A DNA stretch of 56,617 bases, filler included, from a bacterium (GTDB taxonomy: Bacteria; UBA9089; CG2-30-40-21; SBAY01), in assembly GCA_040757115.1 (NCBI GenBank). It is 3 parts of 3 records of this genome, joined end to end, with 100 filler letters (N's around TTAATTAATTAA, not from the genome) between each part and the next. Parts side by side here need not be neighbours in the genome. Positions count along the whole stretch, not along the records: positions 37,821 to 56,617 come from JBFLYA010000065.1; 2 more parts are not named here. One strand, written 5' to 3'. Of the stretch, positions 13,667 through 56,617 are shown piece after piece (within the stretch, counting starts at the first letter, position 1; each line of letters opens with the position of its first letter). Below the pieces are notes generated by a model. That model had not been told where the DNA came from, searched no databases, and worked only from the letters and a program-made list of their open reading frames with translations. Made by a program: the position numbers and the translations under genes.

Positions 13667-13690
13667 TTTTGTCACACCTCTTCTGATTTT

Positions 13691-14152: not shown

Positions 14153-15768
<1,616 letters not shown>

Positions 15769-37820: not shown

Positions 37821-37920
37821 CTAATCTCCCGTTTATAGTTTATCCTTGTTTACCTCATCTTGTTACCCAACTTGTGGGTAAGGATTAGACCCCCGCCAGC
37901 GGGGGACAACGGCCAATCAA

Positions 37921-38707: not shown

Positions 38708-38732
38708 CCTTTCGTATATTCTCTTGCATTTC

Positions 38733-39006: not shown

Positions 39007-39023
39007 GATGCGATGGCTGATTA

Positions 39024-39608: not shown

Positions 39609-40909
39609 GTTACACCCTTTTGATCTCCATTTTGAAAGTTTAAAAATTTCGCCTTGTATTTATAGTCAAAAGTAGTATCCACATCAACCAAACTATTCTT
39701 AATCAAATGAGCATTTAAAAATGTCTTATTCCACAAATAAAGATAACAAAGCAAGTTGTTTTTCTCATCGTATTTCACATTATCAAACTTTAGAAACACC
39801 TTTTGCCCACAAGTCTTGTCTCTTAAGAATTGAACAGCCTCTCCATTTTTTTCTGGTCTCTCCTTTACACCTAATAGTTTGATTTTTAGTCCGTTATTTA
39901 AAATCAATATCTCTGGGGAGATTATTTCTTTTACCGTGTAATGTGTTTCGCTTTCGTAATGTGAATTATCTATTTTCGAACCAAACCTTAATTCTCTCGG
40001 GTCAACCTTCTTATCAAATCTTATAGGGTCGCTGAATTTATATGGCAATTTTTTAATTTCCTCTTTAAAGTCTATTTTTGGGTCTTCTTGCTTAACTATC
40101 TCAAAAGTTGCATTTTGAAAAATAGTACTCTGCTTTAACCCAAGTTTATCTTTTATAATCGGTAGGAACTCCTCATTTATTTCGTAGCCGATAGAGTTTC
40201 TATTCAGATTTTTTGCTGCTAAAGATGTCGTGCCACTACCAAGAAAAGGGTCAAGAACAGTATCATCAACAAAACTGAACATTTTGATGAGTCGTCTTGG
40301 TAACTCCTCAGGGAACATCGCCAGATGTTTATCTTGTTTTTCACCTGGAAAATTCCAGTGTCCTGTGAAATATTGATTCCATTCTTCTTGCGTTAGTTTT
40401 GATTGCTCTTTAATTTCATAGCTTACCTTTGGTGGATTTCCATATTTTTTGAAAATTAAAATAAATTCGTAATCCAATTTAAGAATCCCATTTCTGGGAT
40501 ATGGGAAAGACCCCATTACTGTTGCTCCACCAGTGGTATGGCAAGTAGTGACTTTTTGCCAGATAATTGCTCCCATATAATCGAACCCCCCGCTTTCACA
40601 GAACTTGATGATTTCAGTCCTTATCGGAATAATTTTATATCTTCCATAATAAACAGAACGAGCGAATTGGTCACCAATGTTAATACACAAACGGCAACCT
40701 TTATGCAAAATCCTGTGGCACTCATTCCACACCAAATTAAGGTTGTTTATATATTCTTCATAACTATCATTGAAACCTATCTGTTTTCCATTTCCATAAT
40801 CCTTCAGTTGCCAATAGGGTGGAGATGTAATGATAAGATGTACTGATTCATCCTGGATCTCTTTCATCCATCTTGAATCACCTATGATTATTTTGTGTTT
40901 TGTTTTCAT
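39605..40909 (-). CDS. beta-class DNA methyltransferase (SPPY, probably m4C) fused to a thermonuclease-like domain
   Basis: ITSPPY, H.AMFPEEL, DPFLGSGTT; C-terminal IKLLGV..LLCYLYL..FLNAHLIK SNase-like segment. Confidence 0.88.
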   Translation of the reverse strand: MKTKHKIIIGDSRWMKEIQDESVHLIITSPPYWQLKDYGNGKQIGFNDSYEEYINNLNLVWNECHRILHKGCRLCINIGDQFARSVYYGRYKIIPIRTEIIKFCESGGFDYMGAIIWQKVTTCHTTGGATVMGSFPYPRNGILKLDYEFILIFKKYGNPPKVSYEIKEQSKLTQEEWNQYFTGHWNFPGEKQDKHLAMFPEELPRRLIKMFSFVDDTVLDPFLGSGTTSLAAKNLNRNSIGYEINEEFLPIIKDKLGLKQSTIFQNATFEIVKQEDPKIDFKEEIKKLPYKFSDPIRFDKKVDPRELRFGSKIDNSHYESETHYTVKEIISPEILILNNGLKIKLLGVKERPEKNGEAVQFLRDKTCGQKVFLKFDNVKYDEKNNLLCYLYLWNKTFLNAHLIKNSLVDVDTTFDYKYKAKFLNFQNGDQKGVT

Positions 40910-40953
40910 CTTGCTACCTATAATGGATTTGATTTACTTAAAGCCACCGTTTC

Positions 40954-41033
40954 GCCCAACGGGATGCGGATAAAAGAAGTTGCCAAAAACATTTTGGGGA
41001 AATCTTTGATTTCCCTTTTATCCGCTGTTGTGC
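40954..41033 (-). other. attC-like site
   Basis: Plus strand GCCCAAC-gggat-GCGGATAAAAG..CTTTTATCCGC-t-GTTGTGC. Confidence 0.85.
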
Positions 41034-41041
41034 GAAGTTGT

Positions 41042-41596
41042 CTATTTTTCATTTCCGACCCTCTTCAACAGCTCTTTAATTTTACTAATTTCTGTATCCT
41101 CAACTTTCCCAGAGGCGATATACCTTATTATTCCTTTTTGGTCTATTATTATCACATTGCTTTCATTATCTTTCATTTTGTAACAAGAATTCATCTTGCC
41201 ATCCCAATCTCCGTATATTGTCATCCCTTCTTTCTTTGAATTTTGCCGAAGTTTACTTTTCCATATTCCAGTAAATGGCCAGAATGCTCCTTGACAATTT
41301 ATAACAGGCAACCTAATAATGAGTTTTTTTACTAAATCCAATTGTTCAAAATAAAATTTATTTAACTCATCTTTCAATTTCCGATTCTTTTTTACAACAT
41401 CTTTTGCCTCATAGAATATGACTATTATCTTTCCTTTTATCATATCAAGAGTAAGTATTTTGTCGTCTCCTGATTCAACTTTGAAGAAAGGGGCAGCCGT
41501 CCCAATGATTAAATCTTCCGCAATAGATATCTCGGGCAAGAATAAAGTGCAAAATATAGTTGCTAAAGCGGTAATTGATAATAACTTTTTATCCAT
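41042..41596 (-). CDS. exported thioredoxin-fold (AhpC/TSA or YtfJ-like) protein
   Basis: Signal peptide; G..AP.F, TL..IKGKI.VIFYE, IIIDQKGIIRY; no CxxC. Confidence 0.7.
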   Translation of the reverse strand: MDKKLLSITALATIFCTLFLPEISIAEDLIIGTAAPFFKVESGDDKILTLDMIKGKIIVIFYEAKDVVKKNRKLKDELNKFYFEQLDLVKKLIIRLPVINCQGAFWPFTGIWKSKLRQNSKKEGMTIYGDWDGKMNSCYKMKDNESNVIIIDQKGIIRYIASGKVEDTEISKIKELLKRVGNEK

Positions 41597-42746
41597 CTTC
41601 TTTACTTTTTCCTTTCAAAAACCAATATAAATTGGCGTAGTTCCGCCATAATTTTTTAGAAATACCATAGTTACTTGATATAGATTTCAGAACTTTTCTA
41701 GAAACTTTCCCTTGTTCAACTAATTCCTTTCCTGCCTGCTCTAAGGATGCCAATATTTGCTTTAAATAAACCCTATAAGGTGGTGCATCAGTAATAAATT
41801 GTGCACCGGGTCGTAATATAGTGGCGATAAGTGGTGTATGAAAATCCCTTGCTATCCCATGAAAAGTTTCGACCACTGGTCCGAAATACTCAATTTCAGG
41901 AAACCCATTGACAGAAAAAAGAACAATATATCGTTCCTTCGTGTTCTGCAATGGGTGCCGTGTCAGATTACGATAAGGCACAAAAACAGGTTTAACAGTA
42001 ATAAACTCCCTATCAAGAAATGCCTTCAATTTGGCAGGAATTGAACTAATGTATAATGGGAAGGCATAAATAGTCACACAACTATTGTTAACCTTTTCTA
42101 TTAACTCATTTGCAGCATCTTCAATTACACATTTTCCATTTGTTTTAGTCCAGCAGGTAAAACACCCTCGGCAAGGCTCAATGTTGAACTCCTTGTTATA
42201 AATATCAATGACTTCAACTTCTGTACCTGTCTGCTCAATGCCTTTCATCAAATATTGTAGATAGAAGTAGGTAAAGCCGTTTTTTCTCCGTGGACTCCCA
42301 TTTATAATTAGAATCTTATCAGGTTTTTTCCATACTCTTTTCTTTAGGATTTCAAAATCTTGAACCTTATCTTCTATTCCTGCTATTTCTTCATCAGTAA
42401 ATTTTTTCCCAAATACCTTATTGAACATCTTGAGATAATAAAGTGAACCTTTAATACGATATTTTCTCGTCAACCATCCCCAAGTTCCACTGATTTCACC
42501 ACTGACAATATCAAGCCAAACCGAAACTGGTGAATAGATTGTAATGGTAGGATTGCTATGTTTTCCTTCACCATACCCTGCCTTTCCTCCTGATACCGAA
42601 AGATAAAAGTAATAAGTTTCCCCATCTTCTTCCAGAACAAACTGATAAACTGCCTCAAAATCAGGAAATTGCTTATTGTCGTATAAATTAACCAAATAAC
42701 GAAAAAGGTTAGATAAATTGTCTTTTGTTGATGGTATTTCAATCAT
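41589..42746 (-). CDS. SCP2 sterol-binding domain fused to flavodoxin-like iron-sulfur flavoprotein
   Basis: N-terminal YQF..P.ITI....WLDI..G SCP2 pattern; INGSPR..G.T, CRGCFTCW..C, PLY...PAKLKAFLDR; start MIEIP with GGAGG RBS. Confidence 0.8.
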   Translation of the reverse strand: MIEIPSTKDNLSNLFRYLVNLYDNKQFPDFEAVYQFVLEEDGETYYFYLSVSGGKAGYGEGKHSNPTITIYSPVSVWLDIVSGEISGTWGWLTRKYRIKGSLYYLKMFNKVFGKKFTDEEIAGIEDKVQDFEILKKRVWKKPDKILIINGSPRRKNGFTYFYLQYLMKGIEQTGTEVEVIDIYNKEFNIEPCRGCFTCWTKTNGKCVIEDAANELIEKVNNSCVTIYAFPLYISSIPAKLKAFLDREFITVKPVFVPYRNLTRHPLQNTKERYIVLFSVNGFPEIEYFGPVVETFHGIARDFHTPLIATILRPGAQFITDAPPYRVYLKQILASLEQAGKELVEQGKVSRKVLKSISSNYGISKKLWRNYANLYWFLKGKSKEDG

Positions 42747-42780
42747 GTTTTCCTCCTTGCTAACATTCTTTGACAATTTC

Positions 42781-43113
42781 GCCCAACGGGATGCGGATGA
42801 GCGAAGTGCCCCAAAGGGGCATAGGTTCGACAGGCTCACTACAAGTTTTGGCTTCAGCCCCGATCCACTTCGTGCGACCCACCTTTGGTGGGTACCCCGC
42901 CGCCGCTGATAGCCAAAGTGACGCTTCGCAACTTCCCTTTTTCAAAAAATCCCCTTTGAGTTACATAAAGCTTTCGCCTTTCGCTCATTCGCATCCCGAT
43001 AACCAAAATGGAGCGAAGCGACATTTTGGTTATCGTTTTCGCTGTTTGTGAAGCCCGAAGGGCATTTGGGCGAAGCCGCCGAGGGCGGACGAGCCACAAA
43101 CTCTGTGTTAGCC
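42781..43113 (-). other. composite attC-like site
   Basis: GCCCAAC, mini-element, host hairpin GTTTGTG..CACAAAC, GTTAGCC. Confidence 0.85.
42788..43034. mobile_element. gene-less mini-cassette, copy 2 (247 bp)
   Basis: Same two-hairpin structure; nearly identical to 45885-46131. Confidence 0.85.
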
Positions 43114-43131
43114 GACGTGCTGATTATGCGA

Positions 43132-43875
43132 CTATTCAAGTTCGAAACTTACCGTGACTTTTGCATTGACGTTAATCTGCCCAAGAGCAATGCTGCTTTC
43201 GGCTACTGAAGGTGCACCGCCAACATTTTGAATTACATTTTGAGCCATTCCACCTCTCCACCAGCGAGAACCCCACCAAGCATTATACCAGCACCACCAT
43301 CCAACTTGATCTTCCTGGATCATATGAGGCTTGCCAATCTTCTGCCCTAGTTCCTTGGCTAAATCATTAGCTTTTTGTTCAGCTGCCTTGATTGCAAGAG
43401 CACGTGCTTGATCTCTGTACTTACGGAGCTTTGTGGTGCGGAATTGAACCCCGTGAACATAATTGGCGCCGGCTTCAAGTACATCGCTTAGGAGGTCTTC
43501 GAACTTGGCGATATCCTTTAGTGTGAATACAATCGTTTTTCGAACAAAATAACCTATAAAGTTACGCTTCTCATAATCATCACTATATCTCGGCTCAATA
43601 CTGATGTGGTCGGTTTGGACATGTTTGGATTCAATTTTATACTTTTTGGCAACTGCCAGCAGTTTCTTAACACGTTTATCATTTTGACTTTTTGCTACAC
43701 CAATATCTTTGTCGCATGTCTCCACTCCAAGGGTAAGGATAACCTCATCAGGTGTAACTCTTACTTCAGCATCTCCAGTAACTGTGATCAAGCGTAGCTC
43801 TGCAAAAGCGGAAAACGAGGAAGCCAAAACAAGAACAAAGGCAAAAATACCTCTTCTCACGATTACATTCATCAA
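43132..43875 (-). CDS. SIMPL (DUF541) domain exported protein
   Basis: Signal peptide; ITVTG.AEV.V.PD, T..ISIEP.Y, A...A..KA..LA..LG, G.I.V.A.V.V.F. Confidence 0.9.
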   Translation of the reverse strand: MMNVIVRRGIFAFVLVLASSFSAFAELRLITVTGDAEVRVTPDEVILTLGVETCDKDIGVAKSQNDKRVKKLLAVAKKYKIESKHVQTDHISIEPRYSDDYEKRNFIGYFVRKTIVFTLKDIAKFEDLLSDVLEAGANYVHGVQFRTTKLRKYRDQARALAIKAAEQKANDLAKELGQKIGKPHMIQEDQVGWWCWYNAWWGSRWWRGGMAQNVIQNVGGAPSVAESSIALGQINVNAKVTVSFELE

Positions 43876-43910
43876 TCATCCCTCCTTTCCTGACAAATTA
43901 TCAGCATGTC

Positions 43911-44081
43911 GGCTAACGTTCCCAGCATAAAAGAAGTCCAGCACTTTCCATTTCCCCTTTTCCAATATTTCAATAAAACCACTTTATGATCATCTAACTG
44001 CTCTCCGCTCTTTAACCATAAAAAGTGCTGGATTTGGGTAAGTCCGCCTCTGGCGGACGAACTTTTTATGCTGTGTTATAT
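43911..44081 (-). other. attC-like site
   Basis: GGCTAAC-gttcc-CAGCATAAAA..TTTTATGCTG-t-GTTATAT with inner TCCAGCACTTT / AAAGTGCTGGA stem. Confidence 0.85.
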
Positions 44082-45133
44082 GCTGTTGGTCGCTTTCTGT
44101 CACTTTTTCTACCACCTCTCTTTTTATTTGGTGAATACTTGCCTTTGGGTTCAAAAAGTCTAAGTTGCTGTTCTACTTTCTTTGTCTCATAGATTTTGGT
44201 TTTATCTTCTTCAACATTTTCCAACCTTCTCAAGGCAATTTCTACATATTCGGGGTTAGTGTCAATTCCTATGAATTTTCTTCCTAATTTTTTTGCAGCA
44301 ATGGCGGTTGTTCCACTTCCCACAAAAGGATCTAAAACAATTGCGGAATCTGAAAAAGTGGTTAGCTTGATTATATATTCGCATATTGCTAAGGGTTTAA
44401 CAGTTTTATGGATATTAAAGTCTCCCTTTTCTTCTTTACTTGGTTTGGGCAAAAGGAAACATTTATCCAAAACTTCGGTAATTTCATGGGTGGTTACCAC
44501 ATTAGAAGGAAACATATCTTCTCCAATTTTAACATTTGTATTTAGAAGTCCTACATTATACTTTAACATATTTTCTAAGAATGTTTTTTCACATGGTTTC
44601 TGAGCCATCATAATCGGCTCAAAACATGATTTTATTTGCGGTGTTTTCCAACCAGTTAATTTATCCTTTACTTCTTTTTTAGATTTTTTATCCCAATCTA
44701 ATCTATCTATGAAATGATTAAGTGACATCGCCTTAGGCTGATTCTGTGTATAAAGCCAAATAAAACAATCTCTTATTAAAAAGCCAGCATCATCAGCTGC
44801 TGAAACCATCCGATGATAGAGCCGAGGACTTGAAAATGAAAAGAAGAACCCACCGGGTTTTAATGCCCGGTATAGCTCTTTTGATATTTTCAGATACCAA
44901 TCATAAAAATTCTTTCCCTGATCTTTATCAAATTTCATTCCAGGTGGGAGAGATTTTACCACATGACAATAATCTGTTATTGTAGAAACTGTTTTATGAT
45001 TCCAGTTATTATCCATTTTGTCTAAAAAGTATGGAGGGTCTGTTAGGACAAGGTCTATTGAATTATCCTCAATTTGAGGTAAGACTTGTAAAGCATCTCC
45101 TAATATAATTTTATTTATCAATGCTCTATTCAT
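44066..45133 (-). CDS. beta-class DNA methyltransferase (DPPY, probably m6A)
   Basis: LTDPPY, HKTVKP, DPFVGSGTT; stop lies inside the attC. Confidence 0.9.
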   Translation of the reverse strand: MNRALINKIILGDALQVLPQIEDNSIDLVLTDPPYFLDKMDNNWNHKTVSTITDYCHVVKSLPPGMKFDKDQGKNFYDWYLKISKELYRALKPGGFFFSFSSPRLYHRMVSAADDAGFLIRDCFIWLYTQNQPKAMSLNHFIDRLDWDKKSKKEVKDKLTGWKTPQIKSCFEPIMMAQKPCEKTFLENMLKYNVGLLNTNVKIGEDMFPSNVVTTHEITEVLDKCFLLPKPSKEEKGDFNIHKTVKPLAICEYIIKLTTFSDSAIVLDPFVGSGTTAIAAKKLGRKFIGIDTNPEYVEIALRRLENVEEDKTKIYETKKVEQQLRLFEPKGKYSPNKKRGGRKSDRKRPTAYNTA

Positions 45134-45847
45134 TTGGGTTCCTCCCATTACATTCTTCATATAAAATCTTGTATACTTGCCACCTGACTTCTTTATCTGA
45201 CCTTTTTATTACGTTGGAATTTGCCAGTTTTATTACCCTACCTCTTTCATCATAAACCCAATTATTTCTATCTGCCTGATTACACTTTTCACACTGTGGG
45301 ATAATGTTTCCTGCAACCAGAGGTTGATTTGGATCTTTATGTGCTATTTGTAAGCTGGTAATAGTGTTTGGCCAATGGATATGTGGCTTACTTTCTTCTG
45401 AACCACAGGTGACACATCTATATCCATACTGTTTCTTAAGATTTTCCCAATCACCAGTTTCTTCTATTTTGTGCCCTTTGAAAGCAGGATAAGGTTTTTC
45501 CAGTGTTATAAGTTTATACTCTCCAGATTCAAGAGTCACATGTCTATTACCACGAGTGCCCGATACAATGAACCAGTCTTTTTGAGCCCCAAGATGCCTT
45601 GCTTGCTCAACATCAGCCGTATCAGGATAATATTGGCGAACGAATTGTGTAAGTTCTCCTTTTGAAATCTTTTTCGCCTTAGGATAACCCTGTGCCAGAT
45701 AAACTAATACAAGAGTATCCTTTGTATAATTCCCATGTGTATCGTCAACTTAGGTAGTTTCACTTCATATTGCTTTAAATGTTTATCATGATACTCGCAT
45801 ATCATTTTGTAAATCTTCTTTATCTCCTTGTCAGATAATCGTTTCAT
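45126..45847 (-). pseudogene. frameshifted HNH-type restriction endonuclease
   Basis: MKRLSDKEIK..KLPKLT continues after a 1-bp frameshift near 45745 as DTHGNYTK..QARHLGAQK..CVTC..AHKDP..CEKCN; total 722 bp = 3n-1. Confidence 0.75.
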
Positions 45848-45877
45848 ATTTTATCTCCTTTTCAGACGACCAATTGC

Positions 45878-46207
45878 GTATAACGGGATACGGATGAGCG
45901 AAGTGCCCCAAAGGGGCATAGGTTCGACAGGCTCACTACAAGTTTTGGCTTCAGCCCCGACCCACTTCGTGCGACCCACCTTTGGTGGGTACCCCGCCGC
46001 CGCTGATAGCCGAAGTGACGCAGAGCAACTTCCCTTTTTCAAAAAATCCCCTTTGAGTTACATAAAGCTTTCGCCTTTCGCTCATCCGCATCCCGATAAC
46101 CAAAATGGAGCGAAGCGACATTTTGGTTATCGTTTTCGGTGTAAAAGAAGTTTCAGCGAAGCCGAATTTGGACGAAGCGAAGCGTAGTCTTTTACACCGT
46201 GTTATGT
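45878..46207 (-). other. composite attC-like site
   Basis: GTATAAC, mini-element, host hairpin CGGTGTAAAAGA..TCTTTTACACCG-t-GTTATGT. Confidence 0.85.
45885..46131. mobile_element. gene-less mini-cassette, copy 3 (247 bp)
   Basis: Same two-hairpin structure at the same insertion point. Confidence 0.85.
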
Positions 46208-46354
46208 GATGTGCGTACCAATCTTTTGTTTTCGTAAATAGCCGTATTTTTCTTTGAGTTCATGGAGAAATGCATCGCGGTTAGTAGAATACTTTTTGCT
46301 TAACTCTTCACGAATCTTCCGCTGAAATTTCACAGCATCAAATTTCTTTTTCAT
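46202..46354 (-). CDS. 50-aa putative antitoxin (not in ORF track)
   Basis: MKKKFDAVKFQRKIREELSKKYSTNRDAFLHELKEKYGYLRKQKIGTHIT*; GGAGG RBS; overlaps the PIN gene. Confidence 0.7.
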   Translation of the reverse strand: MKKKFDAVKFQRKIREELSKKYSTNRDAFLHELKEKYGYLRKQKIGTHIT

Positions 46355-46802
46355 GGATAACCTCCCTTGGACTCCTAATCTCGAGGATAGGATAACCTAA
46401 TTTTAAATTGACCGAATTAAAAGCATGGATACGGTTAAGATTTACAATTTGCTGGAAGTTCCAGCTAACAAGCACATCCACCCGTTCCACTGAAGCTATT
46501 GCAATATGTTGAGCGTCTACTATATGCTTTGCACTTACCACTCCCTCATCAATGTAATTTTGTGCCAAGATATCAGCTTCCTCTGTAAGGAAAACATTCT
46601 CTACATTTGCATCCGGAAGAGAGAATAAAATTTTCCTTACACTTTCTGGAGCTTTTTCAATCTCTTTATGAGTTAAATCGGAAACAACAGCAATTCGTAA
46701 ACCTTGTCGAAACTCCTTAAACAATTGAATAGACCATTGGGAAAATTCTTCATCTTCACATCCACCAATGACAGATGTATCGATATAAACCCGCTGCTTC
46801 AT
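46338..46802 (-). CDS. PIN-domain RNase toxin
   Basis: VYIDTSV, DAQHIAIA, LVSWNF. Confidence 0.9.
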   Translation of the reverse strand: MKQRVYIDTSVIGGCEDEEFSQWSIQLFKEFRQGLRIAVVSDLTHKEIEKAPESVRKILFSLPDANVENVFLTEEADILAQNYIDEGVVSAKHIVDAQHIAIASVERVDVLVSWNFQQIVNLNRIHAFNSVNLKLGYPILEIRSPREVIHEKEI

Positions 46803-46844
46803 ATTATCTTACCTTCATACTTATATTTCAAAACTACGCATTTC

Positions 46845-46933
46845 AGATAACGTTCCCAGCATAAAAGAAGTTTTTGCGAAGCAAAAATTTGGGTGAGTGC
46901 CATAAGGCACGAACCTTTTATGCTCTGTTATAC
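46845..46933 (-). other. attC-like site
   Basis: AGATAAC-gttccc-AGCATAAAAG..CTTTTATGCT-ct-GTTATAC. Confidence 0.85.
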
Positions 46934-46977
46934 AACTGTGCCGTGCTCATTCTAAGAAACTCTTAGAAAATCTCATT

Positions 46978-47934
46978 TTAATTTCCTTGCAACTCCTTAA
47001 GAATGAAATCTATCCATTTTTGATACCAATACCATGTCCCACAAACTTCGACACCAAATCCTTTGGCAGGATTTTTGCCATTATGGTCTTTCCAGAATTG
47101 GGTGTGTTGAGACGGTCCAAATTCATTATGACCTTCAGCTTGAACTTTTTTCAGAACATCTTTTCGTAAAAATTTAGGTTTTTCTCTATCTTCTTTTATC
47201 CAATATTCCTTTGATATATTCTTGGCTAATGGCGATTCAGGGTCAATAAATTCAATCACTCTATCCGCTTGCCCTTGCCTTTTAGCAACAACCTTTGAAA
47301 ATAAAAGCCGATAAGCAAATCTATCGCTCTTTATTTCATCATCAGTAAGAGAGTTGTCAAAATCCGCAATATATGAGTGAATTTCTTTTGGTATTAACCC
47401 TTCCTTATCTTTAATTATATTTGCTTGTGTATAATCAAGTTCTGCAAACTGCAAACTTAAAGCTAAATTATTATCAAGTGAGTATTTTGTACCAAATAGT
47501 TCTTTCAAATAGTAATTATAATTCAAAGCACATGCTTGGTAACGGGCCGAAAGGTAAGAATCTAATCCAGTAGCTTTTTTATGCTCAATTTGATTTCGTA
47601 ATCCTATAAGAAATTTAAGATTGTTTGAAGTATTTTTATCAAGAGGGCATTCAGATTTTGAAATACATTCCTTGATGTCCCAATGTTTAATGCTTCCATC
47701 TGGGTTTCGTAAGAATTTCTTCCGCTCCTTGGGAATAGTGTAATAACGGTAATCAATTTTTTTTGACCTATAGTATGCATGAAGAAGATATGTCCAAGCA
47801 ATAATAAAAAGTACTATGAATGATTCCGTTTTAAAGGTAGTAAGAGGGTTATTATATATTTGAACAGCAGAGAGAGCTGCTTCTCTTGATTTTAAGATTA
47901 AATCTACCTTTTCAGAAAAGAGTCGTCTATGCAT
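46978..47934 (-). CDS. DUF3644-like protein with HEPN motif
   Basis: KSREA...AV.IYN.P, F.VL..IAW.YLLHA, LRNQIEH (RX4H). Confidence 0.75.
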   Translation of the reverse strand: MHRRLFSEKVDLILKSREAALSAVQIYNNPLTTFKTESFIVLFIIAWTYLLHAYYRSKKIDYRYYTIPKERKKFLRNPDGSIKHWDIKECISKSECPLDKNTSNNLKFLIGLRNQIEHKKATGLDSYLSARYQACALNYNYYLKELFGTKYSLDNNLALSLQFAELDYTQANIIKDKEGLIPKEIHSYIADFDNSLTDDEIKSDRFAYRLLFSKVVAKRQGQADRVIEFIDPESPLAKNISKEYWIKEDREKPKFLRKDVLKKVQAEGHNEFGPSQHTQFWKDHNGKNPAKGFGVEVCGTWYWYQKWIDFILKELQGN

Positions 47935-47974
47935 ATTTTCAATTCCTTCTATTTACTTCTAGGCACGGCATGTT

Positions 47975-48056
47975 GTATAACGTTCCTGATGTAAAAGAAG
48001 TTTTGCGAAGCAAAATTTGGACGAAGTGAAACGAAGTCTTTTACATCGTGTTATAC
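47975..48056 (-). other. attC-like site
   Basis: GTATAAC-gttcct-GATGTAAAAGA..TCTTTTACATC-gt-GTTATAC. Confidence 0.85.
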
Positions 48057-48097
48057 GCTGTGCCGGGCTCTTTTATAATCATACTTAAAGTAAACTC

Positions 48098-48298
48098 TTA
48101 TGCCTTTCTCAATAAAACCCCTTTCTCACTTGGTCTAACTTGAGCTACTCCATCTAAATGTTTGATATTTTCTAACCCTTTCTTTGTAGTCTCAACTCCT
48201 ACAATATCTGTAAGACTGGAGACAAATAAAATATTGCCGTATTCTTTAATCCTCTCAACTGCCTGAGTATCCTTAATTTTGGCTAAGATTCTAATCAT
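48098..48298 (-). CDS. stand-alone subtilase prodomain/I9-like protein
   Basis: 66 aa; aligns by eye with residues 1-65 of the adjacent S8 protease; ATGA overlap. Confidence 0.75.
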   Translation of the reverse strand: MIRILAKIKDTQAVERIKEYGNILFVSSLTDIVGVETTKKGLENIKHLDGVAQVRPSEKGVLLRKA

Positions 48299-49278
48299 TC
48301 TTCTAACACCTCCAGTAACTTATGGATATTAAGCAACCCATATCCCTGTTCATTTCTTCTATATCCCAAGTCCTTGCAACTCTGTTTTATAGAATTTATT
48401 ACCCATTCTTTATCTTGATACTTACTAAAAAGAGAAGCTAATGTGCCTGTTATTATTGGTGTGGAGATAGAAGTTCCCATAACCTTAAATTTGCCAATAG
48501 AAAGAGAACCCGGGGCTAGCAAATCCGGCTTTTCTTGAAATACAAACCCTCTACTGCTGTAATTAGCTATCTTTTCATCCTCACTCGCTCCAATGGTTAT
48601 CGCCTTATTGGCATTACCTGGACAGGATATAGTTCCTTCTTCTGGTCCCCAATTCCCAGCCGCAGATACTACATATAGACCATTATCAACCAATACATCT
48701 ACATACTGACAAAGCCAGCAGTCTCCCTGACATCTTCTGGAAAAACCCAAAGATAGGTTGACTATATGAGCTTTATTTTGATAAGACCATTCTAAGGCTT
48801 GAAATAATGCTATCTCGTCAACCTCTCCAAAACGGTTTACTACCTTTCCAATCAACATTGAGGAGTCAGGAGCAATTGACTGAATTAGCTTAGAGATAAT
48901 AGTGCCATGAGTAATCTCATCTTGCAACCCTTCTTCTGTAAAGTCTTTATCCAGGATAACCGAATATTTTAATCCCGAATCTTGAAGGAATACTCCACTA
49001 TCCAAGATAGAGATATAGATACCTGCACCAAATAGACCCATCTCATGAAGATGTTGAATCCCTATCTTAAACAATGTTTGATTGAATAAGATGGTCCCTT
49101 TCTCACTCTCTCTGAACTCTTCGATAAAACCAATCTGTTTTAATGCTTCTGGGTATTTTGTTTCAAGACCAATTATATCAACAAGCTTCGTTTGGAAGAG
49201 TAAGGATACTCCTATCTTTTTTAATTCTTCTATATGCTCAGACTTCATCTTATCCTTTAACTTTGCAAGTAGTCGCAT
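48295..49278 (-). CDS. S8 (subtilisin-like) serine protease, no signal peptide
   Basis: ILDSG, HGT, AAGN, GTSISTP catalytic motifs; NLSLG, YSSRG, KPDLLAPG, QGYG. Confidence 0.92.
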   Translation of the reverse strand: MRLLAKLKDKMKSEHIEELKKIGVSLLFQTKLVDIIGLETKYPEALKQIGFIEEFRESEKGTILFNQTLFKIGIQHLHEMGLFGAGIYISILDSGVFLQDSGLKYSVILDKDFTEEGLQDEITHGTIISKLIQSIAPDSSMLIGKVVNRFGEVDEIALFQALEWSYQNKAHIVNLSLGFSRRCQGDCWLCQYVDVLVDNGLYVVSAAGNWGPEEGTISCPGNANKAITIGASEDEKIANYSSRGFVFQEKPDLLAPGSLSIGKFKVMGTSISTPIITGTLASLFSKYQDKEWVINSIKQSCKDLGYRRNEQGYGLLNIHKLLEVLEE

Positions 49279-49295
49279 AATCCTCTACCTTTTTA

Positions 49296-52200
49296 TCATA
49301 CAAAATGATTTTTAAATAAAGCTTGAATTTCTTTAGCAATAGCGACTCGGTCAGGCATGTAATTTTCTTTTTCAAGTTCTGTAAGATGCCAATCAATCTC
49401 TACGGTTAACCACTCATGCTTGCCACTTATGTCAGTTAGTTTAACCTCCATGTCATTCAGAGGATCAATGTAATTCTTGTAATCCTTTCCCTCCAAAGCT
49501 AATGCAATACAAACAAGCGAAGCAGCAATCACTTTTTCTTTATCTAAGAGAGTACCTCGAGTCAATCTTTTATAAGTAGCGATAACCTCATTGTACCTTC
49601 TAAGACAAATTTTCACTTCCATTTCTCCTAAAAATGCCATTTTATTTAAAGGGTTAAGTCCAGTAGCCATCTGATAATCAGGGATAGAATTTACCAAATC
49701 TCCTTTTTGAGAATAGCAACCAGCCCTTTGCATATAATTATTATCATTACCTGGTTCAATCTTAATCGCCTTAGTGAAGTCCTGAATTGCCATATTTAAA
49801 TAGTTTTCAGCGTATTCAGGGGAACAGACAGCCAAAATTCTATAACATATTCCTCGTCGATTATAGGCACCAGCAAAGCTTGGGTTTATTTCTAAGACTT
49901 CAGTATATTTTTCTGCTGCCTTTTCCAAATTATCTTTTTTAAACAAATCATTAGCTTCTTTTAATGCTTGCTTGTACTTAATAACATCTTCTTCACTTAG
50001 GTAGTGTTTTTTAAAGAGATTATGAATTATTAAGGCATTATCAATCCGATCCTGTGAAATTCCTAACTCTTTTAGCTTGGGCTCAGAAATATATGGTTCA
50101 ATATCATTTGGATCATAAATATCCTTAAAGAGCTTAATTGTAATATCTTTTAATGAAGCCATGTAATCTTCGTATGGTATACCCTCTAAGGAGAGAGCTA
50201 AACATATAAAATGTGCTGCAATTACCCTATATTGATGGGACAGTCTATTTATGCGAATGTCTTTATATGTTTTTCTGGCTTCAGAATACCTACATAGCCA
50301 AATTTCAATCTCCATTTTAGACATTATTGCAGCTATATTTTGGGGATTCAACCTAATTGCCTCACCATAGTCTGAAATTGCCTTCTCTAAATCTTTCTTA
50401 TATACATAGCAGTTACCCCTTCCATGAAATAATGAGCTGGTAGGTTTAATCTGTATAGCTCTGGTATAGTTTTCAATTCCATTGTCAAAGAATTTGTTAT
50501 TATCTTTTGACTTACCTAACTTCAAATATATATCTCCTACCATTTCATATGTTTTGGCAAGATTTGAACCTATTTCTATAGCTTTATCACACTCTTCCAA
50601 TGCAGTTTCAATCTGGTCATTTTTAAAGAGTTGGTTTGCTTCTGCCAAGTAGATTTTACATAGCTGGTTACTGTAAACCCCTTCAGATATAAAATCTCCA
50701 CTTCCTTTTGCCACAGCTATCGCCTGGTGATAATAGTCTATCGCCTTGCTAAATTGGTTTGAGAAAAAGGAGAGATTTCCAAGATTAGAAACGAAACTAC
50801 CTTCTTGTTGTTTATCTCCAATTTTTTTGGCAATTTCTAAGCCATCACGATAATACTCCTCAGCCTGCTTAAATTGACTTAATAAAGCATAAATATTCCC
50901 AAGATTGCAGAGAGCCTTCATTTGATTTGTTAAGTCTTTATTCTCTTTGGCATTGCTTAGTTCATCTGATAAAGAGCCTATTTTCTTATTTTTCTTATCC
51001 CACTGTTTTATTTTTTCTTTAAAGAAATCTTGAACCGAATCTTCATATTGTTCATCTCCAATCTCTTTAGCAATATTTTCTGCCTGAATAAAACATTCCA
51101 TTGCCTTGTCAGATTGACCTGACTTGATATATACATCACCAAGCATAGAAATATAATTACCTTCATTCTGTAGATCTTCATCTTCTTGAGCGATTTTTAG
51201 TGCCTTAGAAAGATAACCAATAGCCTTGTCAAATTGCTCTAATTTAGAATAGCTTTCTCCAATCTTAGACAAAATATTGCTTTCATGCTGTCTGTTCCTC
51301 ATCTTTTTGGCAATATCAAGGCCATACTCAAAGTATTCAATAGCCTGATAAAACTCTAAGAGATCAAAGTACACTATGCCTATATTCCAGAGATCTGAAA
51401 TCTCATTTTCTAGACTTCTCATTTCTTTACTAATCTTCACCGCCTCTTTATAATATTCAATAGCTTCCAGGAATTCTGCAGAAGCCCAATATATGTTGCC
51501 AAGGGAAGATAATTGATAATGTATTCCTTTTCTAAAGAGAATGCTCTTTGAGATAGATAAGGCATCTTTAAGAAAATCTATTGCCTTTGATGAATATCCT
51601 GATTTATAGTACTGGTTACCCAAAACACCAAGCCACCAGCTTTCATGTCTTCTGTCTTTGGTCTCAATAGCAATTGCATGGGCTAATTCATAACATTCAA
51701 TTGCTTTTTTATGCTCGTCTCTTTCCTCATAAATATTTCCTAAATCCCCAAGCCATATACCTTCATATCTTCTATCTTTACTTTCAGGTTCGCGACAAAT
51801 ATCTATAGCCTGTTTATAGTACTCCTCAGCCTTTTCCAAATCTCCTTTTGAATGGAGTGCATTACCCAAGCATCCAAAATTTCTTCCTTCAATCTTCCGA
51901 TTTTTAATTTCCTTGAAAAATGCTTTGGCCAGATTGTGGTATTCTATTGATTCATCGATTTCACCCAGAAAATGGCATACATCTCCTAAGTTTACAAGTT
52001 GTGTACATTCACTATTCTTATCCTGGCAAACTTGGGCAATGGATAGAGCTTCTTTATAATATCTCTTTGCCTCTTGTATGTCTCCCAAATCGCGGAATAC
52101 AAGCCCTAAATTACCAAGAAGAATACTTAACTTATCCTCTGGAATCTCTTTTCTTTTTTCTTCAAAACCTTTATAAATGTTCATCAACTCTCTAAAGTAA

Positions 52201-54428
52201 CACCAAGAAAACAGTTTATCATGTAGTCCTTCTTTCATAAATAATTCCACTGTTTCTTTAGTTCTCTCAGCAGATATGAGGTGCTCAATGGCATCAAGAA
52301 GAGGATATATATCCTCAATAGACTTCTTATGTTCCGATAAGAGGGATGCCTGGTTGAGGTAGAAATCTCCTGCCTTGCTATGAAGATAGATTTTTTCTTT
52401 ATCTTTTAATTGACTTAACACATATTCCCTTACTATTGCGTGAACATCATAAGTTTCTTCTTGAGGTCTTGACACAAGACATCGCTGGATTAGTTCATTC
52501 AAAGCATGAAGGCTCTCTCTTTCAGGCATATCTGTCACAAAAGAAAAAGCCTTTAGGTCACATGGTTTTAAAAATATACAAACAGAATGGAGAGCCTTCT
52601 TCAAATTTGAATCGTGAGAAATCCTTTTGTAAGCCCGAGAGACGACATTAGTAGTAATCTTCTCTAATTTGCCCAACCAAAGGATGTCATCATTTATAAT
52701 TGTTTGGATACCTGTAGAAGATAGGGAAGGAGCTATCCACTCTAATGCACCAGGATGTCCTTGCATCTTTTCTCTTACCAGTGTTCTTATATCTTCAACC
52801 GACTTCTCCAAAATTGGTCTATCTTCTTCAGAAATTCCCCTCTTGAGTATTTCTATTCCCGCAGATTCATCAACACCTTTAAGAAATATATGATGGAATT
52901 CCTTCTCTTCTGAATCTTTAGGTATCACCCACGCAGTAAGTATCAGCCTTGCACTCTCTAAATTCCTTGAGCAAGTTAAAAACTTAGCAAAACCCTCATC
53001 CTTTGGTTTAAGGGTTTTCCTATCAACAAGAACCTCAAATTGGTCAATAATAACAAGACATGAGTTCTTCTCAATTGTGTTTATGACTAATTGAACCTGC
53101 TCATCTACGGTGCTACCACCAAAATCTATATCCTCATCGGTTAGATATTTAATCAGTCGTCTTCCAAACTCAGAAAATGAAGGTGGTTTATCATAGTTAA
53201 GGCGTCTCCAATAATACCTTTTGAACTGCAACCATTTATCTTTTATTATTTTTTCAAAAAGTGCTGAAAGTAATTTTGACTTGCCGATTCCTTTAATGCC
53301 TACAATAGCAAAAGAATACCCTTTGAGTAAATTAAGGCATTTTTCTATCTCTTCTTCGCGTCCAAATAAATCTTTAGCTGGAACCTTATATTCTTCTTCT
53401 GAAATAGGTATAATTTTTCTTTTTCTTTCTTCCCTTTCCTTCCTTTCTTGCATCTCTTCCAAAACTTGAATAATCTCTGGTGGAAAAGGCTCCCTAAGGA
53501 ATCGGTTCTCTTTAACATCGGAAGTAGTACTGATGTTAATCTGTATTTTATTATTTACCAATGTCTCTAATATCTGGGCATTCTTATTAGAAAACCCATC
53601 AATGAATATAGATTTAACCAATGGACCATATTTTTCTTTGTCCTCTGGGCGCATTTGAATAACCACTTCAATCGCATAAGGGGTGTAGGAGCTGATCTCG
53701 GTCTGATTGTGTAACCACCAATAAATTTCATCATGTGGGTCAAGTCTAAAATTCCTTACTGTTTCGAATGATACCCGATTACTTGCTATATCCAATTCAT
53801 CAGAGAAGCGTAACATCGCCCCTATTAGTCGTTTGCGTTCATTCGAATTGAACTTGAACTTCTCGTCACAATCGTCAATTGGTAGTTTAGAATGGTACTT
53901 GCAGACATCCATCAAGTCCTCTACAAGATTTGAAGGAATAGTTTTAGCTGCAGGACCAAGGACAGAGTCTCCAGTCTCGTAGGCATACTCAATCCAGGCG
54001 GCACTGAAGTAGTGGTGGTTTTTGCGAATAGCTTTCTGCTCGTCTATGCTGTAGCTACTGGATGTCGAAGCAGTAAAGGTAACATCAAACTCTGCGCCCA
54101 TTTTTTCAGCCCTCTCCTTAATCTCAGGGAATCTGATAACATCACACTGCATTCCTATATCGTGCAAGTAGATACCTGCCAAAACCAGATACATTTCTTG
54201 TGCAGAAATGGGTTTACCTTGATTAACTTCTAACAATTTGTTTTTAAAATTTTCTACTACTCGCTCGCAATGTGTTTCATCATGGTAAGTACAATCCCGA
54301 ATGATGCGTGGTGCATCAGAAGCCCATATATCTTCCATTGCTTCTCGAATTTGTGCAAGATTGGAGCGAAGACGATTGTTGGCAATATCCTTCAAAAGTT
54401 GTTCCTCAATAGCGGAAAATTTAGCCAT
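49296..54428 (-). CDS. HD-domain - STAND NTPase - TPR protein (NLR/Avs-like), 1710 aa
   Basis: YHDETHCERV, YLHDIGM, HH, YHS, RFSDELD (HD); FGREEE, GIKGIGKS, LVIIDQFE, LILT, GHPGAL, VHAIVR (STAND); ~950 aa of TPRs. Confidence 0.9.
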   Translation of the reverse strand: MAKFSAIEEQLLKDIANNRLRSNLAQIREAMEDIWASDAPRIIRDCTYHDETHCERVVENFKNKLLEVNQGKPISAQEMYLVLAGIYLHDIGMQCDVIRFPEIKERAEKMGAEFDVTFTASTSSSYSIDEQKAIRKNHHYFSAAWIEYAYETGDSVLGPAAKTIPSNLVEDLMDVCKYHSKLPIDDCDEKFKFNSNERKRLIGAMLRFSDELDIASNRVSFETVRNFRLDPHDEIYWWLHNQTEISSYTPYAIEVVIQMRPEDKEKYGPLVKSIFIDGFSNKNAQILETLVNNKIQINISTTSDVKENRFLREPFPPEIIQVLEEMQERKEREERKRKIIPISEEEYKVPAKDLFGREEEIEKCLNLLKGYSFAIVGIKGIGKSKLLSALFEKIIKDKWLQFKRYYWRRLNYDKPPSFSEFGRRLIKYLTDEDIDFGGSTVDEQVQLVINTIEKNSCLVIIDQFEVLVDRKTLKPKDEGFAKFLTCSRNLESARLILTAWVIPKDSEEKEFHHIFLKGVDESAGIEILKRGISEEDRPILEKSVEDIRTLVREKMQGHPGALEWIAPSLSSTGIQTIINDDILWLGKLEKITTNVVSRAYKRISHDSNLKKALHSVCIFLKPCDLKAFSFVTDMPERESLHALNELIQRCLVSRPQEETYDVHAIVREYVLSQLKDKEKIYLHSKAGDFYLNQASLLSEHKKSIEDIYPLLDAIEHLISAERTKETVELFMKEGLHDKLFSWCYFRELMNIYKGFEEKRKEIPEDKLSILLGNLGLVFRDLGDIQEAKRYYKEALSIAQVCQDKNSECTQLVNLGDVCHFLGEIDESIEYHNLAKAFFKEIKNRKIEGRNFGCLGNALHSKGDLEKAEEYYKQAIDICREPESKDRRYEGIWLGDLGNIYEERDEHKKAIECYELAHAIAIETKDRRHESWWLGVLGNQYYKSGYSSKAIDFLKDALSISKSILFRKGIHYQLSSLGNIYWASAEFLEAIEYYKEAVKISKEMRSLENEISDLWNIGIVYFDLLEFYQAIEYFEYGLDIAKKMRNRQHESNILSKIGESYSKLEQFDKAIGYLSKALKIAQEDEDLQNEGNYISMLGDVYIKSGQSDKAMECFIQAENIAKEIGDEQYEDSVQDFFKEKIKQWDKKNKKIGSLSDELSNAKENKDLTNQMKALCNLGNIYALLSQFKQAEEYYRDGLEIAKKIGDKQQEGSFVSNLGNLSFFSNQFSKAIDYYHQAIAVAKGSGDFISEGVYSNQLCKIYLAEANQLFKNDQIETALEECDKAIEIGSNLAKTYEMVGDIYLKLGKSKDNNKFFDNGIENYTRAIQIKPTSSLFHGRGNCYVYKKDLEKAISDYGEAIRLNPQNIAAIMSKMEIEIWLCRYSEARKTYKDIRINRLSHQYRVIAAHFICLALSLEGIPYEDYMASLKDITIKLFKDIYDPNDIEPYISEPKLKELGISQDRIDNALIIHNLFKKHYLSEEDVIKYKQALKEANDLFKKDNLEKAAEKYTEVLEINPSFAGAYNRRGICYRILAVCSPEYAENYLNMAIQDFTKAIKIEPGNDNNYMQRAGCYSQKGDLVNSIPDYQMATGLNPLNKMAFLGEMEVKICLRRYNEVIATYKRLTRGTLLDKEKVIAASLVCIALALEGKDYKNYIDPLNDMEVKLTDISGKHEWLTVEIDWHLTELEKENYMPDRVAIAKEIQALFKNHFV

Positions 54429-54595
54429 GATTCTGTACCTCTTAACAATCTGTTTATACTTATGACAATATCATCTTAATTAGGAGTCTTACATAAATAA
54501 AAAAAACCAGGTTATTCATTCTCTTTTTTTCCAATTTATCTTTAAAAATAAGCTGATGACACCTAACATTTCTTAAATTAAGGGCACGGCATTGC

Positions 54596-54940
54596 ATATA
54601 ACGGGATGCGGATGAGCGAAGTGCCCCTTTAGGGGCATAGGTTCGACAGGCTCACTACAAATTTTGGCTTCAGCCCCGACCCGCAAGCGCGACCCACTTC
54701 GTGGGTTCCCCGCCGCCGCTGATAGCCGAAGTGACGCTTCGCAACTTCCCTTTTTCAAAGATTCCCCTTGAGTTACATAAAGCTTCCGCCTTTCGCTCAT
54801 CTGCATCCCGATAACCAAAATGCGAACCCCAAAGGGGTTCGAGCGAAGCGTCATTTTGGTTATCGTTCGCGGTGTTTGTGAAGTGCGAGCGTTAGCGAGC
54901 ATTTGGGTGAGCGCAGCGAGCCACAAACACCGTGTTATCT
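54596..54940 (-). other. composite attC-like site
   Basis: ATATAAC, mini-element, host hairpin CGGTGTTTGTG..CACAAACACCG-t-GTTATCT. Confidence 0.85.
54603..54864. mobile_element. gene-less mini-cassette, copy 4 (262 bp)
   Basis: Same structure; extra GAACCCCAAAGGGGTTC hairpin in the small loop. Confidence 0.85.
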
Positions 54941-54957
54941 GAAATCCAACAATAGTA

Positions 54958-55743
54958 TCATAATGGTTTGTTACAAACAAACATTGTAAGAATGTATTTC
55001 CCCTTTCCAAAGATGAAACGGTCATAGGAGTGTTCTAACTTCATCTGTTTTACTTCAACTCCTACCTCTTTTAAAAGATCAAGCCAAGTCGATAGATTGA
55101 AACGGCCTATTGTACCGATGTCGGAGTGAATTTCCAATTTGCCTTTACGCCGGATCAAAAAGACTAATGTTGCTTCATAAGTTGTCCCAGCAGGATCAGG
55201 AACATAATTGTTTTCAAAAATTGTGATTTCAGTATCTCCTTTGGAACCAGTATAGACAAAATTATTCTCTTTGAATTCTTCTTTAATATTAGCTACGATC
55301 AAGAGCACTCCGCCTGGTTTCAAGTGGTTGTATGCAGTAATAATTGCACCTCTGAGGTCTTCTACCGTTGTCATGTGGCCTATAGAATCAGGAATAGCAA
55401 TGGCATCAAAACATTCCTTTAATCGCATTGCTCGCATATCGCCATAAAGATAAGTTACTTCTGGGTTGCGTTCTTTTGCAATTTTAAGCATATCTTCACT
55501 AATATCCACCCCTGTTACCTTAAAGTGTCTTTTAAAGGTGTAATCATTGCCACCCGCCCCACAACCAAGATGAAGCAATGTTCTTGCTTCGATTTTTGAA
55601 TGCTCCTTAATTACCTTGCTAAATAGCTCTGTTTCTTCTGCATACTCCTCATGTGGAGCAATGATTGATTCAGTCCAAGCAAGGTCACTGTAGGAACGCC
55701 ATTTAGTCGTCTTCATTCCATATTTCTCTCTTAATTTTTTCAT
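54958..55743 (-). CDS. class I SAM-dependent methyltransferase
   Basis: LLHLGCGAG, GVDISEDML, GDMR, HLKPGG. Confidence 0.9.
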   Translation of the reverse strand: MKKLREKYGMKTTKWRSYSDLAWTESIIAPHEEYAEETELFSKVIKEHSKIEARTLLHLGCGAGGNDYTFKRHFKVTGVDISEDMLKIAKERNPEVTYLYGDMRAMRLKECFDAIAIPDSIGHMTTVEDLRGAIITAYNHLKPGGVLLIVANIKEEFKENNFVYTGSKGDTEITIFENNYVPDPAGTTYEATLVFLIRRKGKLEIHSDIGTIGRFNLSTWLDLLKEVGVEVKQMKLEHSYDRFIFGKGKYILTMFVCNKPL

Positions 55744-55766
55744 TTCTAACCCTTAAGTTGGATTTC

Positions 55767-55824
55767 AGATAACGGGATGCGGATGAGCGAAGTGCTTTAG
55801 CATTTCGTTTATGCTGAGTTATCT
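55767..55824 (-). other. short (58-bp) attC-like site
   Basis: AGATAAC-gggat-GCGGATGAGCGAAGTGC-ttta-GCATTTCGTTTATGCTGA-GTTATCT. Confidence 0.7.
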
Positions 55825-55850
55825 GCCGTTGTGGGCAATTTTCTCATTTT

Positions 55851-56249
55851 TTATTTCTCAAATATTACTTTTCTATTCGAATGGTCAAATTTAATATCAA
55901 ACTGATCGAATATGTCTAACCTACCAAGTAAAAATGGCACCTCTTCTATTAAAACCCAACCAATTCGAGTTTCAACCTCATCATTTCCTATTTTAATCTT
56001 GACCCGTTTGATGATATAGGGAATTGCTCCTTCCCCAATGCCTTTGAGTTCTTTAATTTCTTCTTTTTCTATTTCAAATCCCAAGTAATCTCCTGCTCTT
56101 TTTGGTATCAAAGTAATATCTGCGCCAGAATCAAGGAGCATTTCGCATCTAAAACTCTTTTCACCACTGGTAACTCGGAGAACTACATATGGTTTCCGAA
56201 TTACTCCAAAATCCTTTAATTGTTCTTCACAATAAGGGAATTCAATCAT
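55851..56249 (-). CDS. retropepsin-like aspartic protease
   Basis: LLDSGADIT, GIG, LLGR..F..F. Confidence 0.88.
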   Translation of the reverse strand: MIEFPYCEEQLKDFGVIRKPYVVLRVTSGEKSFRCEMLLDSGADITLIPKRAGDYLGFEIEKEEIKELKGIGEGAIPYIIKRVKIKIGNDEVETRIGWVLIEEVPFLLGRLDIFDQFDIKFDHSNRKVIFEK

Positions 56250-56461
56250 ACTATCATCAACTCCTCCTTTGGGATTTTAGCAATAAGTGGGTCATCTGAA
56301 ACTTTTTTTGCTTTCTCAATTACCCCTATAAAATCAATCCCATGAGCCACTATTTCCTCTCCTGCAACAGCAATATATTCCCCCCTATATTTAAGCCTTT
56401 CTTCTGAATGTGAATCTAACCAATCTGCTTCCTTATCACAGGGTATTTTATTATGTTTCAT
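56246..56461 (-). CDS. DUF5678-like small protein
   Basis: KYRGEYIAV.GE.IVAHG pattern; ATGA-coupled to the protease. Confidence 0.75.
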   Translation of the reverse strand: MKHNKIPCDKEADWLDSHSEERLKYRGEYIAVAGEEIVAHGIDFIGVIEKAKKVSDDPLIAKIPKEELMIV

Positions 56462-56617
56462 CTTTTTATCATCTCCTCTTTTTTAAATTTTTTCGACCTG
56501 TGCGGTTAGATTTTATGCTGCCAATTTGAGTTCTATCTTACCCTCTTCAAACCATCTTTTAGTTTCATTGTTTCTTACCATAGCAGTTATTGAGGCAAGA
56601 GTTACTGAACCAGGCTT

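Follow-up and report, generated by a model that had tools for sequence, protein, structure and literature searches.

Bacterial NLR-like proteins of the Avs and bNACHT type share a three-part build, in which an enzymatic effector is joined to a STAND NTPase and a TPR-type sensor. Their relatives swap effectors, as described in the available portions of two reports (10.1101/2022.07.19.500537; PMC13581612). Sensor-linked protease-effector modules place a protease beside a STAND sensor, and an S8 clade is mentioned among them; in the accessible part of the source, the sensor carries the protease as a fusion, and the target of cleavage is a neighboring latent effector (MBL, alpha/beta-hydrolase, Pepco, or EACC1) (PMC12642450). 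IetAS, which pairs an S8 protease with an AAA+ ATPase, likewise puts an S8 catalytic domain in a defense setting. Subtilisin prodomains are folding chaperones, and free-standing I9-type inhibitors include yeast PBI2 and Pleurotus POIA1. Sedentary chromosomal integrons carry defense genes in attC-bounded cassettes, sometimes with two genes per cassette (10.1101/2024.07.02.601686, available text). Here, we describe a three-gene locus in a window of 56,617 nucleotides (the whole stretch of DNA analyzed) from the bacterial assembly GCA_040757115.1. G1 encodes a large HD-CE/STAND/TPR protein, G2 an S8 protease, and G3 a free copy of the G2 prodomain. A prediction made earlier from the sequence alone (the original prediction) had joined the three genes into one inflammasome-like defense system. 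We favor the reading that two separable conflict modules, G1 and the G2+G3 pair, probably came together in one unusually large integron-type cassette of this lineage.

The G2+G3 pair is found at 14 other loci, three in genomes and 11 in metagenomes. G3 follows the S8 gene at 13 of the 14 (the copy at L005 stops after 19 residues, and the L014 contig ends inside the S8 gene), and a GGAGGTG ribosome-binding site within the 3' end of the S8 gene is conserved at the 12 loci that could be read there. A tblastn search detected G1-like sequence at none of the 14. Nine of the S8 loci have at least 1 kb of upstream sequence, and these represent about six independent contexts because L001, L011, and L012 have neighbors in common, as do L005 and L006. 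In the three genomes with the pair, matches to G1 are confined to its TPR region, with none to HD-CE or the NTPase. The converse search gave the same picture. Of 24 genomes from the nearest phylum, 12 have an HD-CE match that passes the cut-off set for the family, and neither S8 nor G3 lies beside HD-CE genes in any of 13 flanks of 3.5-20 kb from 12 related genomes, a count that excludes the contig of P0026, the closest G1 ortholog. The S8 gene of the trio is also absent from the nearest genome used for comparison, G001 (26% shared words with the window). Finally, a nucleotide alignment of the window with L004 sets in about 17 nt 5' of the S8 ATG, inside the gap between G1 and G2, which places the module boundary at this 17-bp gap. 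Since the pair is found without G1 everywhere else, two modules are a better description than one three-part system. The original prediction had tied its one-system claim to the co-occurrence of STAND homologs with the S8 pair, and no such recurrence was found.

If the trio were one system, G1 would, once ligand-bound and oligomerized, switch on the protease (removal of G3 being one route), or the protease would act as a second effector arm that processes G1 or a host target. The locus has features that fit this proposal. The genes share a strand. As the original prediction had described, G1 and G2 are 17 bp apart, G2 and G3 overlap by ATGA, and no attC-like site was found within the three-gene block. 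Moreover, the G1-G2 junction is bridged by another assembly, cassettes of the array often hold functionally linked pairs, and sensor-linked proteases, including an S8 clade, offer a precedent (PMC12642450, part available). However, G1 is missing from all other pair loci, S8 and G3 are missing from the HD-CE flanks, the pair occurs in genomes without an HD-CE or NTPase match to G1, and homology breaks at the 17-bp gap. In addition, G1 has its own effector domain, like self-sufficient NLR-like proteins, and a search among longer proteins returned no S8-sensor fusion, the best match being a generic S8 protein at 35% identity. A single system is thus unlikely. We nevertheless retain it at that level because of the tight packing, the functional cassettes of the array, the unseen genomic context of P0026, and the S8-clade proteases reported beside sensors (PMC12642450). 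The novelty claimed for the combination holds insofar as neither the trio nor the pair of an S8 protease and a free prodomain is described in the literature searched, supplements excepted; it is not supported for the trio as a single system, as the pair recurs without G1. A tempting three-gene system is thereby resolved into separately testable parts.

A related arrangement is present in G001. Its contig C579 (L037 7250-12964) carries an attC-like site, an HD-CE/P-loop gene of 636 codons, and a TPR gene of 966 codons, whose product is 32% identical to G1 residues 976-1709. The TPR gene is followed after 16 nt by an MNT-like open reading frame (ORF) and then HepT, not S8, with no attC site between (the MNT-like ORF was called by eye, and Pfam supports HepT only). 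C579 holds a second large NLR-like cassette that ends in a small two-gene module. An NLR-like gene directly before a toxin-antitoxin pair fits the view that two modules share the cassette.

G2 belongs to Peptidase_S8 (PF00082, E 2e-25). All 11 members of its S8 family that were aligned share the triad D93, H124, and S270 and the oxyanion asparagine N209, in the S8 order. The alignment to mature subtilisin BPN' begins at G2 residue 72 (E 9.5e-20), which leaves about 67 N-terminal residues at the position of a propeptide; the protein is thus laid out as a cis prodomain (1 to ~67) and a catalytic domain (~68-327). On inspection of the sequence, the N-terminus is hydrophilic and has no signal-peptide-like or hydrophobic stretch, in agreement with the earlier description of gene 2 as a signal-less subtilase with a D/H/S triad. 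Over G2 residues 1-64, G3 shows 39% identity (E 9e-11), and it ends at the expected cleavage point of the G2 cis prodomain, so the proposal that gene 3 copies the prodomain stands. The structure model of G2 residues 1-58 has a beta-alpha-beta-beta-alpha-beta order with a block pLDDT (predicted local distance difference test) of 81-91, and the remainder of the model is poor. The mean pLDDT of the full-length G2 model, 51.6, is too low for it to serve as a fold-search query.

The complex was modeled, a check suggested with the original prediction. G2 residues 66-327 together with G3 scored 0.81, a mark attained by 58 of 80 solved complexes and two of 110 mismatched pairs; the best of three controls scored 0.20. 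At least 97% of the contacts agree between runs, with a partner pLDDT no lower than 89. In the model, the G3 tail (residues 57-66) lies in the catalytic cleft and contacts D93-S94, H124, N209, and 266-271 of G2. Both the predicted fold of the prodomain and the tail modeled in the cleft would resemble subtilisin propeptides and free I9-type inhibitors. Unlike these, the cytoplasmic bacterial protease here has two prodomain copies in its operon, one in cis and one encoded separately with translational coupling. The pair of an S8 protease and a free prodomain would be a new form of protease-inhibitor logic and is a more novel lead than G1.

The S8 family has a further hallmark in C183, C187, C190, and C219, a conserved CxxxCxxC motif plus a fourth cysteine. 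This cluster adjoins the predicted prodomain-binding surface of G2 and could serve this cytoplasmic protease for metal binding or redox chemistry. A wider set of compact S8 proteins was assembled by choosing 37 representative clusters from 150 listed, on the basis of length (317-372 residues) and a near-full-length match (profile start 1-33). The triad is present in 37 of these 37 clusters, as are C187 and C219, with C183 in 36 and C190 in 28. Among known systems, IetS was considered as an identity for G2 and rejected, with 33.7 bits to the PADLOC IetS model and 18.5 bits to NCBIfam IteS, whose cut-off is 900. The locus also differs from IetAS in that there is no AAA+ IetA partner, G1 being a STAND protein, and in that G2 falls short of half the IetS length. 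In contrast to the sensor-linked modules, whose protease is fused, G2 is free-standing, its sole conserved partner is its prodomain paralog, and G1 brings its own effector. The PADLOC search suggested in the original prediction did not point to any defense system: it returned generic S8 (PDLC03014, "subtilase") and TPR matches only.

The distribution of this S8 family is patchy. A pattern scan found it in three of ~185,579 species genomes, and it is present in one of 401 genomes of one class. No members were found on viral contigs, and plasmids yielded generic S8 proteins only. Its neighbors differ from context to context. At L001, L011, and L012, a ThiL-like gene lies upstream, and a 1202-residue type IIG restriction-modification enzyme lies downstream or nearby (at L001, with Eco57I, N6_Mtase, and TaqI_C domains; at L012, judged from an ORF of equal length). 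L002 has a DegT fragment upstream and PIN, Phd-like, HicA, and UPF0175 genes downstream or nearby. L003 has DUF362 upstream and a DNA methylase downstream or nearby, and L009 a HycI-like gene upstream and a tyrosine recombinase downstream or nearby. At L005 and L006, a small ORF and then a divergent M16 peptidase gene lie upstream, and the contigs end shortly after the pair. At L002 (3304-5316), the 5' end of a DegT/DnrJ aminotransferase gene occurs twice, once on either side of the S8 pair and UPF0175, an arrangement that looks like an insertion with target duplication.

These contexts bear on whether G2 and G3 could be an ordinary intracellular protease with a folding chaperone acting in trans, or an enzyme of peptide maturation, located in variable DNA by chance. 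Housekeeping neighbors (the ThiL-like gene at L001 and DUF362 at L003), the wider compact S8 family with its uniformly retained triad, and the general role of subtilisin prodomains as chaperones speak for such an enzyme. However, the very patchy distribution, the cassette array here, and the restriction-modification, toxin-antitoxin, and recombinase genes nearby elsewhere do not suit a housekeeping function. G3 also ends at the propeptide cleavage point and is modeled in the cleft as a product-like inhibitor. An ordinary protease is therefore improbable. The patchy spread and the conflict-type neighbors suggest instead that the G2+G3 pair is a conflict or addiction module.

G1 was predicted to combine an intact HD motif set with a STAND NTPase and long TPR arrays, and each of these parts was located. 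Pfam assigns residues 45-256 to HD-CE (PF24391, E 7.9e-25) and residues 354-498 to nSTAND1 (E 1.2e-6; 28.9 bits, cut-off 27.1), and many TPR families match from ~700 to 1710. The STAND motifs are a Walker A GIKGIGKS at 377-384 (K383), a Walker B IIDQFE at 460-465, GHP at 557, and VHA at 662. In an alignment of G1 with 34 homologs, the HD metal-ligand set shows no substitution at H89, D90, H138, H179, R207, D210, and D213 and almost none at H49 and H53. The model of residues 1-340 has a pLDDT of 92.9, and its fold matches are the PPX/GppA C-domain (Z 12.2, root-mean-square deviation 3.6, 181 aligned residues), class I phosphodiesterases (Z ~10), and HD-GYP and Rel/SpoT proteins (Z ~8-9). The Z values alone are weak evidence because the fold is helical. 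A Foldseek search with the HD-CE model gave nothing at E<=0.001, and the best hit of a sequence search of the PDB with the domain had an E of 0.98. Taken together, the invariant HD set, the confident model, and the general HD-superfamily fold matches suggest that the N-terminal domain is an intact HD phosphohydrolase. At the other end, the last ~440 residues are a tandem duplicate of a ~210-residue unit (33% identity, E 4e-32).

A search for HD-CE returned 70 proteins at E<=0.001, including G1 of the window. In most of them, the domain is followed by NACHT or NB-ARC and by pentapeptide, WD40, TPR, or HEAT repeats, and by these architectures HD-CE appears to be a shuffled N-terminal domain of STAND proteins. 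HD-CE homologs thus swap NTPase and sensor, a pattern of the same kind as the effector shuffling among bacterial NLR-like proteins in the available part of 10.1101/2022.07.19.500537. G1 shares the three-part build of the Avs and bNACHT proteins, as the original prediction had recognized, and it is a new member of a known sensor-effector kind. It differs from them in its effector, HD-CE, which was not found discussed in the papers searched, and in an NTPase that scores as nSTAND1. No Avs or NLR model of PADLOC matched G1, only the TPR models PDLC01169 and PDLC01171. A protein atlas gave the HD-CE label and nothing further. A whole-word literature search for HD-CE returned unrelated papers only, although the domain may be among the effectors tabulated for PMC13581612 and for the bNACHT paper.

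Module A, as we picture it, would be G1 as a single-protein, self-sufficient sensor-effector of the Avs/bNACHT style. By analogy with this family, the C-terminal TPR arrays would bind an invader-derived ligand, and the STAND NTPase would oligomerize upon NTP binding. The clustered N-terminal HD-CE domains could then hydrolyze a phosphoester in the nucleotide pool, a signaling nucleotide, or nucleic acid, and either phage replication or the cell would be halted. Module B would be a cytoplasmic S8 zymogen with a cis prodomain. Its translationally coupled paralog G3 would occupy the G2 cleft like a cleaved propeptide and keep the protease latent, and proteolysis would set in once G3 is lost or titrated away. 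Such a logic could serve as a toxin-antitoxin system, in abortive infection, or as an addiction that stabilizes the cassette. A more far-reaching version, which we hold only tentatively and judge rather doubtful, is that the pair is an undescribed two-gene conflict module, with a Cys-cluster S8 protease whose own prodomain was duplicated as an antitoxin or safety catch. It would move among integron cassettes and toxin-antitoxin and restriction-modification islands of distant phyla and would here have been captured immediately downstream of an NLR-like HD-CE sensor, where it may form a second effector arm.

If this picture is right, G1 adds to the NLR-like sensors an uncharacterized HD-CE effector that is widespread on STAND proteins. 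In G2 and G3, the prodomain of a zymogen would have been duplicated into a regulator; if the protease is toxic and neutralized as predicted, the pair would work as a simple module for addiction or abortive infection that relies on a protease. The locus also indicates that integron-type arrays beyond the well-studied Proteobacteria store very large defense genes and that cassettes can merge modules.

Several points weigh against the reading of two modules. The trio is packed like an operon, and other multi-gene cassettes of the array pair genes that function together (such as MjaI restriction and modification), so the shared cassette is itself some evidence of linkage. In protease-effector modules, S8-type proteases are reported beside sensors of the STAND type and others (PMC12642450, in the part available). 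The S8 loci are few, partly redundant, and in many cases short, and the genomes are metagenome-assembled. P0026 is the sole full-length G1 ortholog known (59% identity), and its contig, left out of the flank count, has 6094 bases. For the pair itself, no Pfam family matches G3 or the G2 N-terminus at E<=0.01, Inhibitor I9 included, which also sets them apart from the free I9-type inhibitors. The score of the G2-G3 complex may mirror solved subtilisin-propeptide complexes, since such complexes are among known structures. We infer all biochemical activities, and any anti-phage role, of G1, G2, and G3. A functional link within this cassette is possible on grounds of adjacency alone.

The three genes are co-directional and lie between two attC-like hairpin sites (Table 1). 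The ends match, as had been claimed: GGCACGGCAT-4 nt-TATAAC is common to both. The downstream site folds as DNA better on the strand opposite the genes (-22.2 kcal/mol, z -4.67, matched by none of 200 shuffles) than on the gene strand (-16.7 kcal/mol). It can be aligned with further inter-cassette sites of the contig, and a site of the same kind is present in G001. The architecture is that of an integron cassette, with R''/L''-L'/R' hairpin sites at the ends and the bottom strand as the best folder. The attC box consensus is RYYYAAC/GTTRRRY, and the boxes here, GTATAAC/GTTATAC, are one base off. A promoter scan of the locus was at chance level (28 sites vs. 23.4 +/- 3.9), and no terminator was found between G1 and G2.

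Table 1. Features of the three-gene cassette and its bounding sites (positions along the window).
Feature	Position	Strand	Basis
Downstream attC-like site	47962..48062	.	GGCAC outer stem, TATAAC/GTTATA boxes, inner stem; + strand fold
G3, 66-residue free prodomain-like protein, predicted G2 inhibitor or chaperone	48098..48298	-	G2 paralogy, pair recurrence, complex model
G2, 327-residue signal-less S8 protease	48295..49278	-	Pfam, triad alignment, models
G1-G2 spacer, 17 bp, the S8 gene's own ribosome-binding region	49279..49295	-	L004 alignment
G1, whole gene, 1710 residues	49296..54428	-	Gene call
G1 residues ~1271-1710 and stop, tandem-duplicated ~210-residue TPR-containing unit	49296..50618	-	Self-BLAST
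G1 residues ~700-1270, TPR arrays, putative sensor	50619..52328	-	Pfam TPR_1, TPR_12, TPR_MalT, others
G1 residues ~350-700, STAND NTPase	52329..53381	-	Pfam, motifs
G1 residues 1-340, predicted HD-CE phosphohydrolase effector domain	53409..54428	-	PF24391, model, fold matches, invariant H/D set
AT-rich leader 5' of G1	54429..54582	-	Sequence; no callable promoter
Upstream composite attC-like site with a repeat element of ~262 nt inside (~54603-54864)	54583..54940	.	Sequence, repeats, depth

The cassette belongs to an array. On the third contig of the window (37821-56617), all genes point in one direction, with related hairpin sites between them. Other cassettes hold a HepT toxin, the MjaI restriction-modification pair (39024-40909), a second DNA methylase, a peroxiredoxin-like and flavoprotein pair, SIMPL, a methyltransferase, and an aspartyl-protease and DUF5678 pair. 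No integron integrase was seen on this 18.8-kb contig, and G001 has partial matches to the TIGR02249 integron integrase at contig ends (215, 208, and 125 bits, against a full-length cut-off of 265). The array is comparable to sedentary chromosomal integrons in its attC-bounded defense cassettes. It differs from them in the size of this cassette (~6.5 kb with a 1710-residue gene, as outsized as first noted), in its little-studied, non-Vibrio lineage, and in the lack of an integrase on the contig.

The adjacency of G1 and G2 could in principle be an assembly chimera of two cassettes. The window itself was joined from three contigs with N and TTAATTAATTAA linkers, and the array is repeat-rich, with a 238-base unitig inside G2 (48344-48581) at a depth of 521 vs. 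309 elsewhere. However, a 6077-base contig from a public run, built by a different assembler, spans 48552-54628 with zero differences, and the junction is not at a repeat. Because this contig bridges the junction, we conclude that the G1-G2 adjacency is not an assembly artifact, and a chimera is highly improbable; the contig possibly derives from the window's own source sample. Sixty contigs aligned in all, 40 at >=99% likeness and 20 at 95-99%, and a second S8 variant may be present in the same sample.

Four attC-like sites of the array contain an element of ~262-272 nt (38664-38935, 42774-43045, 45871-46142, and ~54603-54864). It is inserted at the same point each time, before the GTTATA box, and has nested inverted repeats of its own. 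The contig word depth is 6512 over the upstream composite site vs. 309 over the genes (~21-fold). The copy near G1 had no Rfam match. The element may be a small mobile element that targets attC sites. The cassette just 3' of the trio (46978-47934) encodes a 318-residue DUF3644 protein.

The three contigs of the window are joined by N runs (18821-18864, 18877-18920, 37721-37764, and 37777-37820) around all-frame stop linkers; proximity across these joins is thus no evidence that two features are neighbors. Two ORFs for retropepsin-like aspartyl proteases were seen, one at 55851-56461, where the cassette partner is DUF5678, and the other at 7420-7794. The latter lies within a ribosomal RNA operon (6752-15768), in which the 23S match is 3414 nt long against a 2925-position model; the 5S gene is 2.8 kb past the 23S gene, and this aspartyl-protease-like ORF is one of three that intervene. 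A 4085-residue ORF at 19412-31669 contains tandem repeats of ~942 nt, with copies up to 100% identical.

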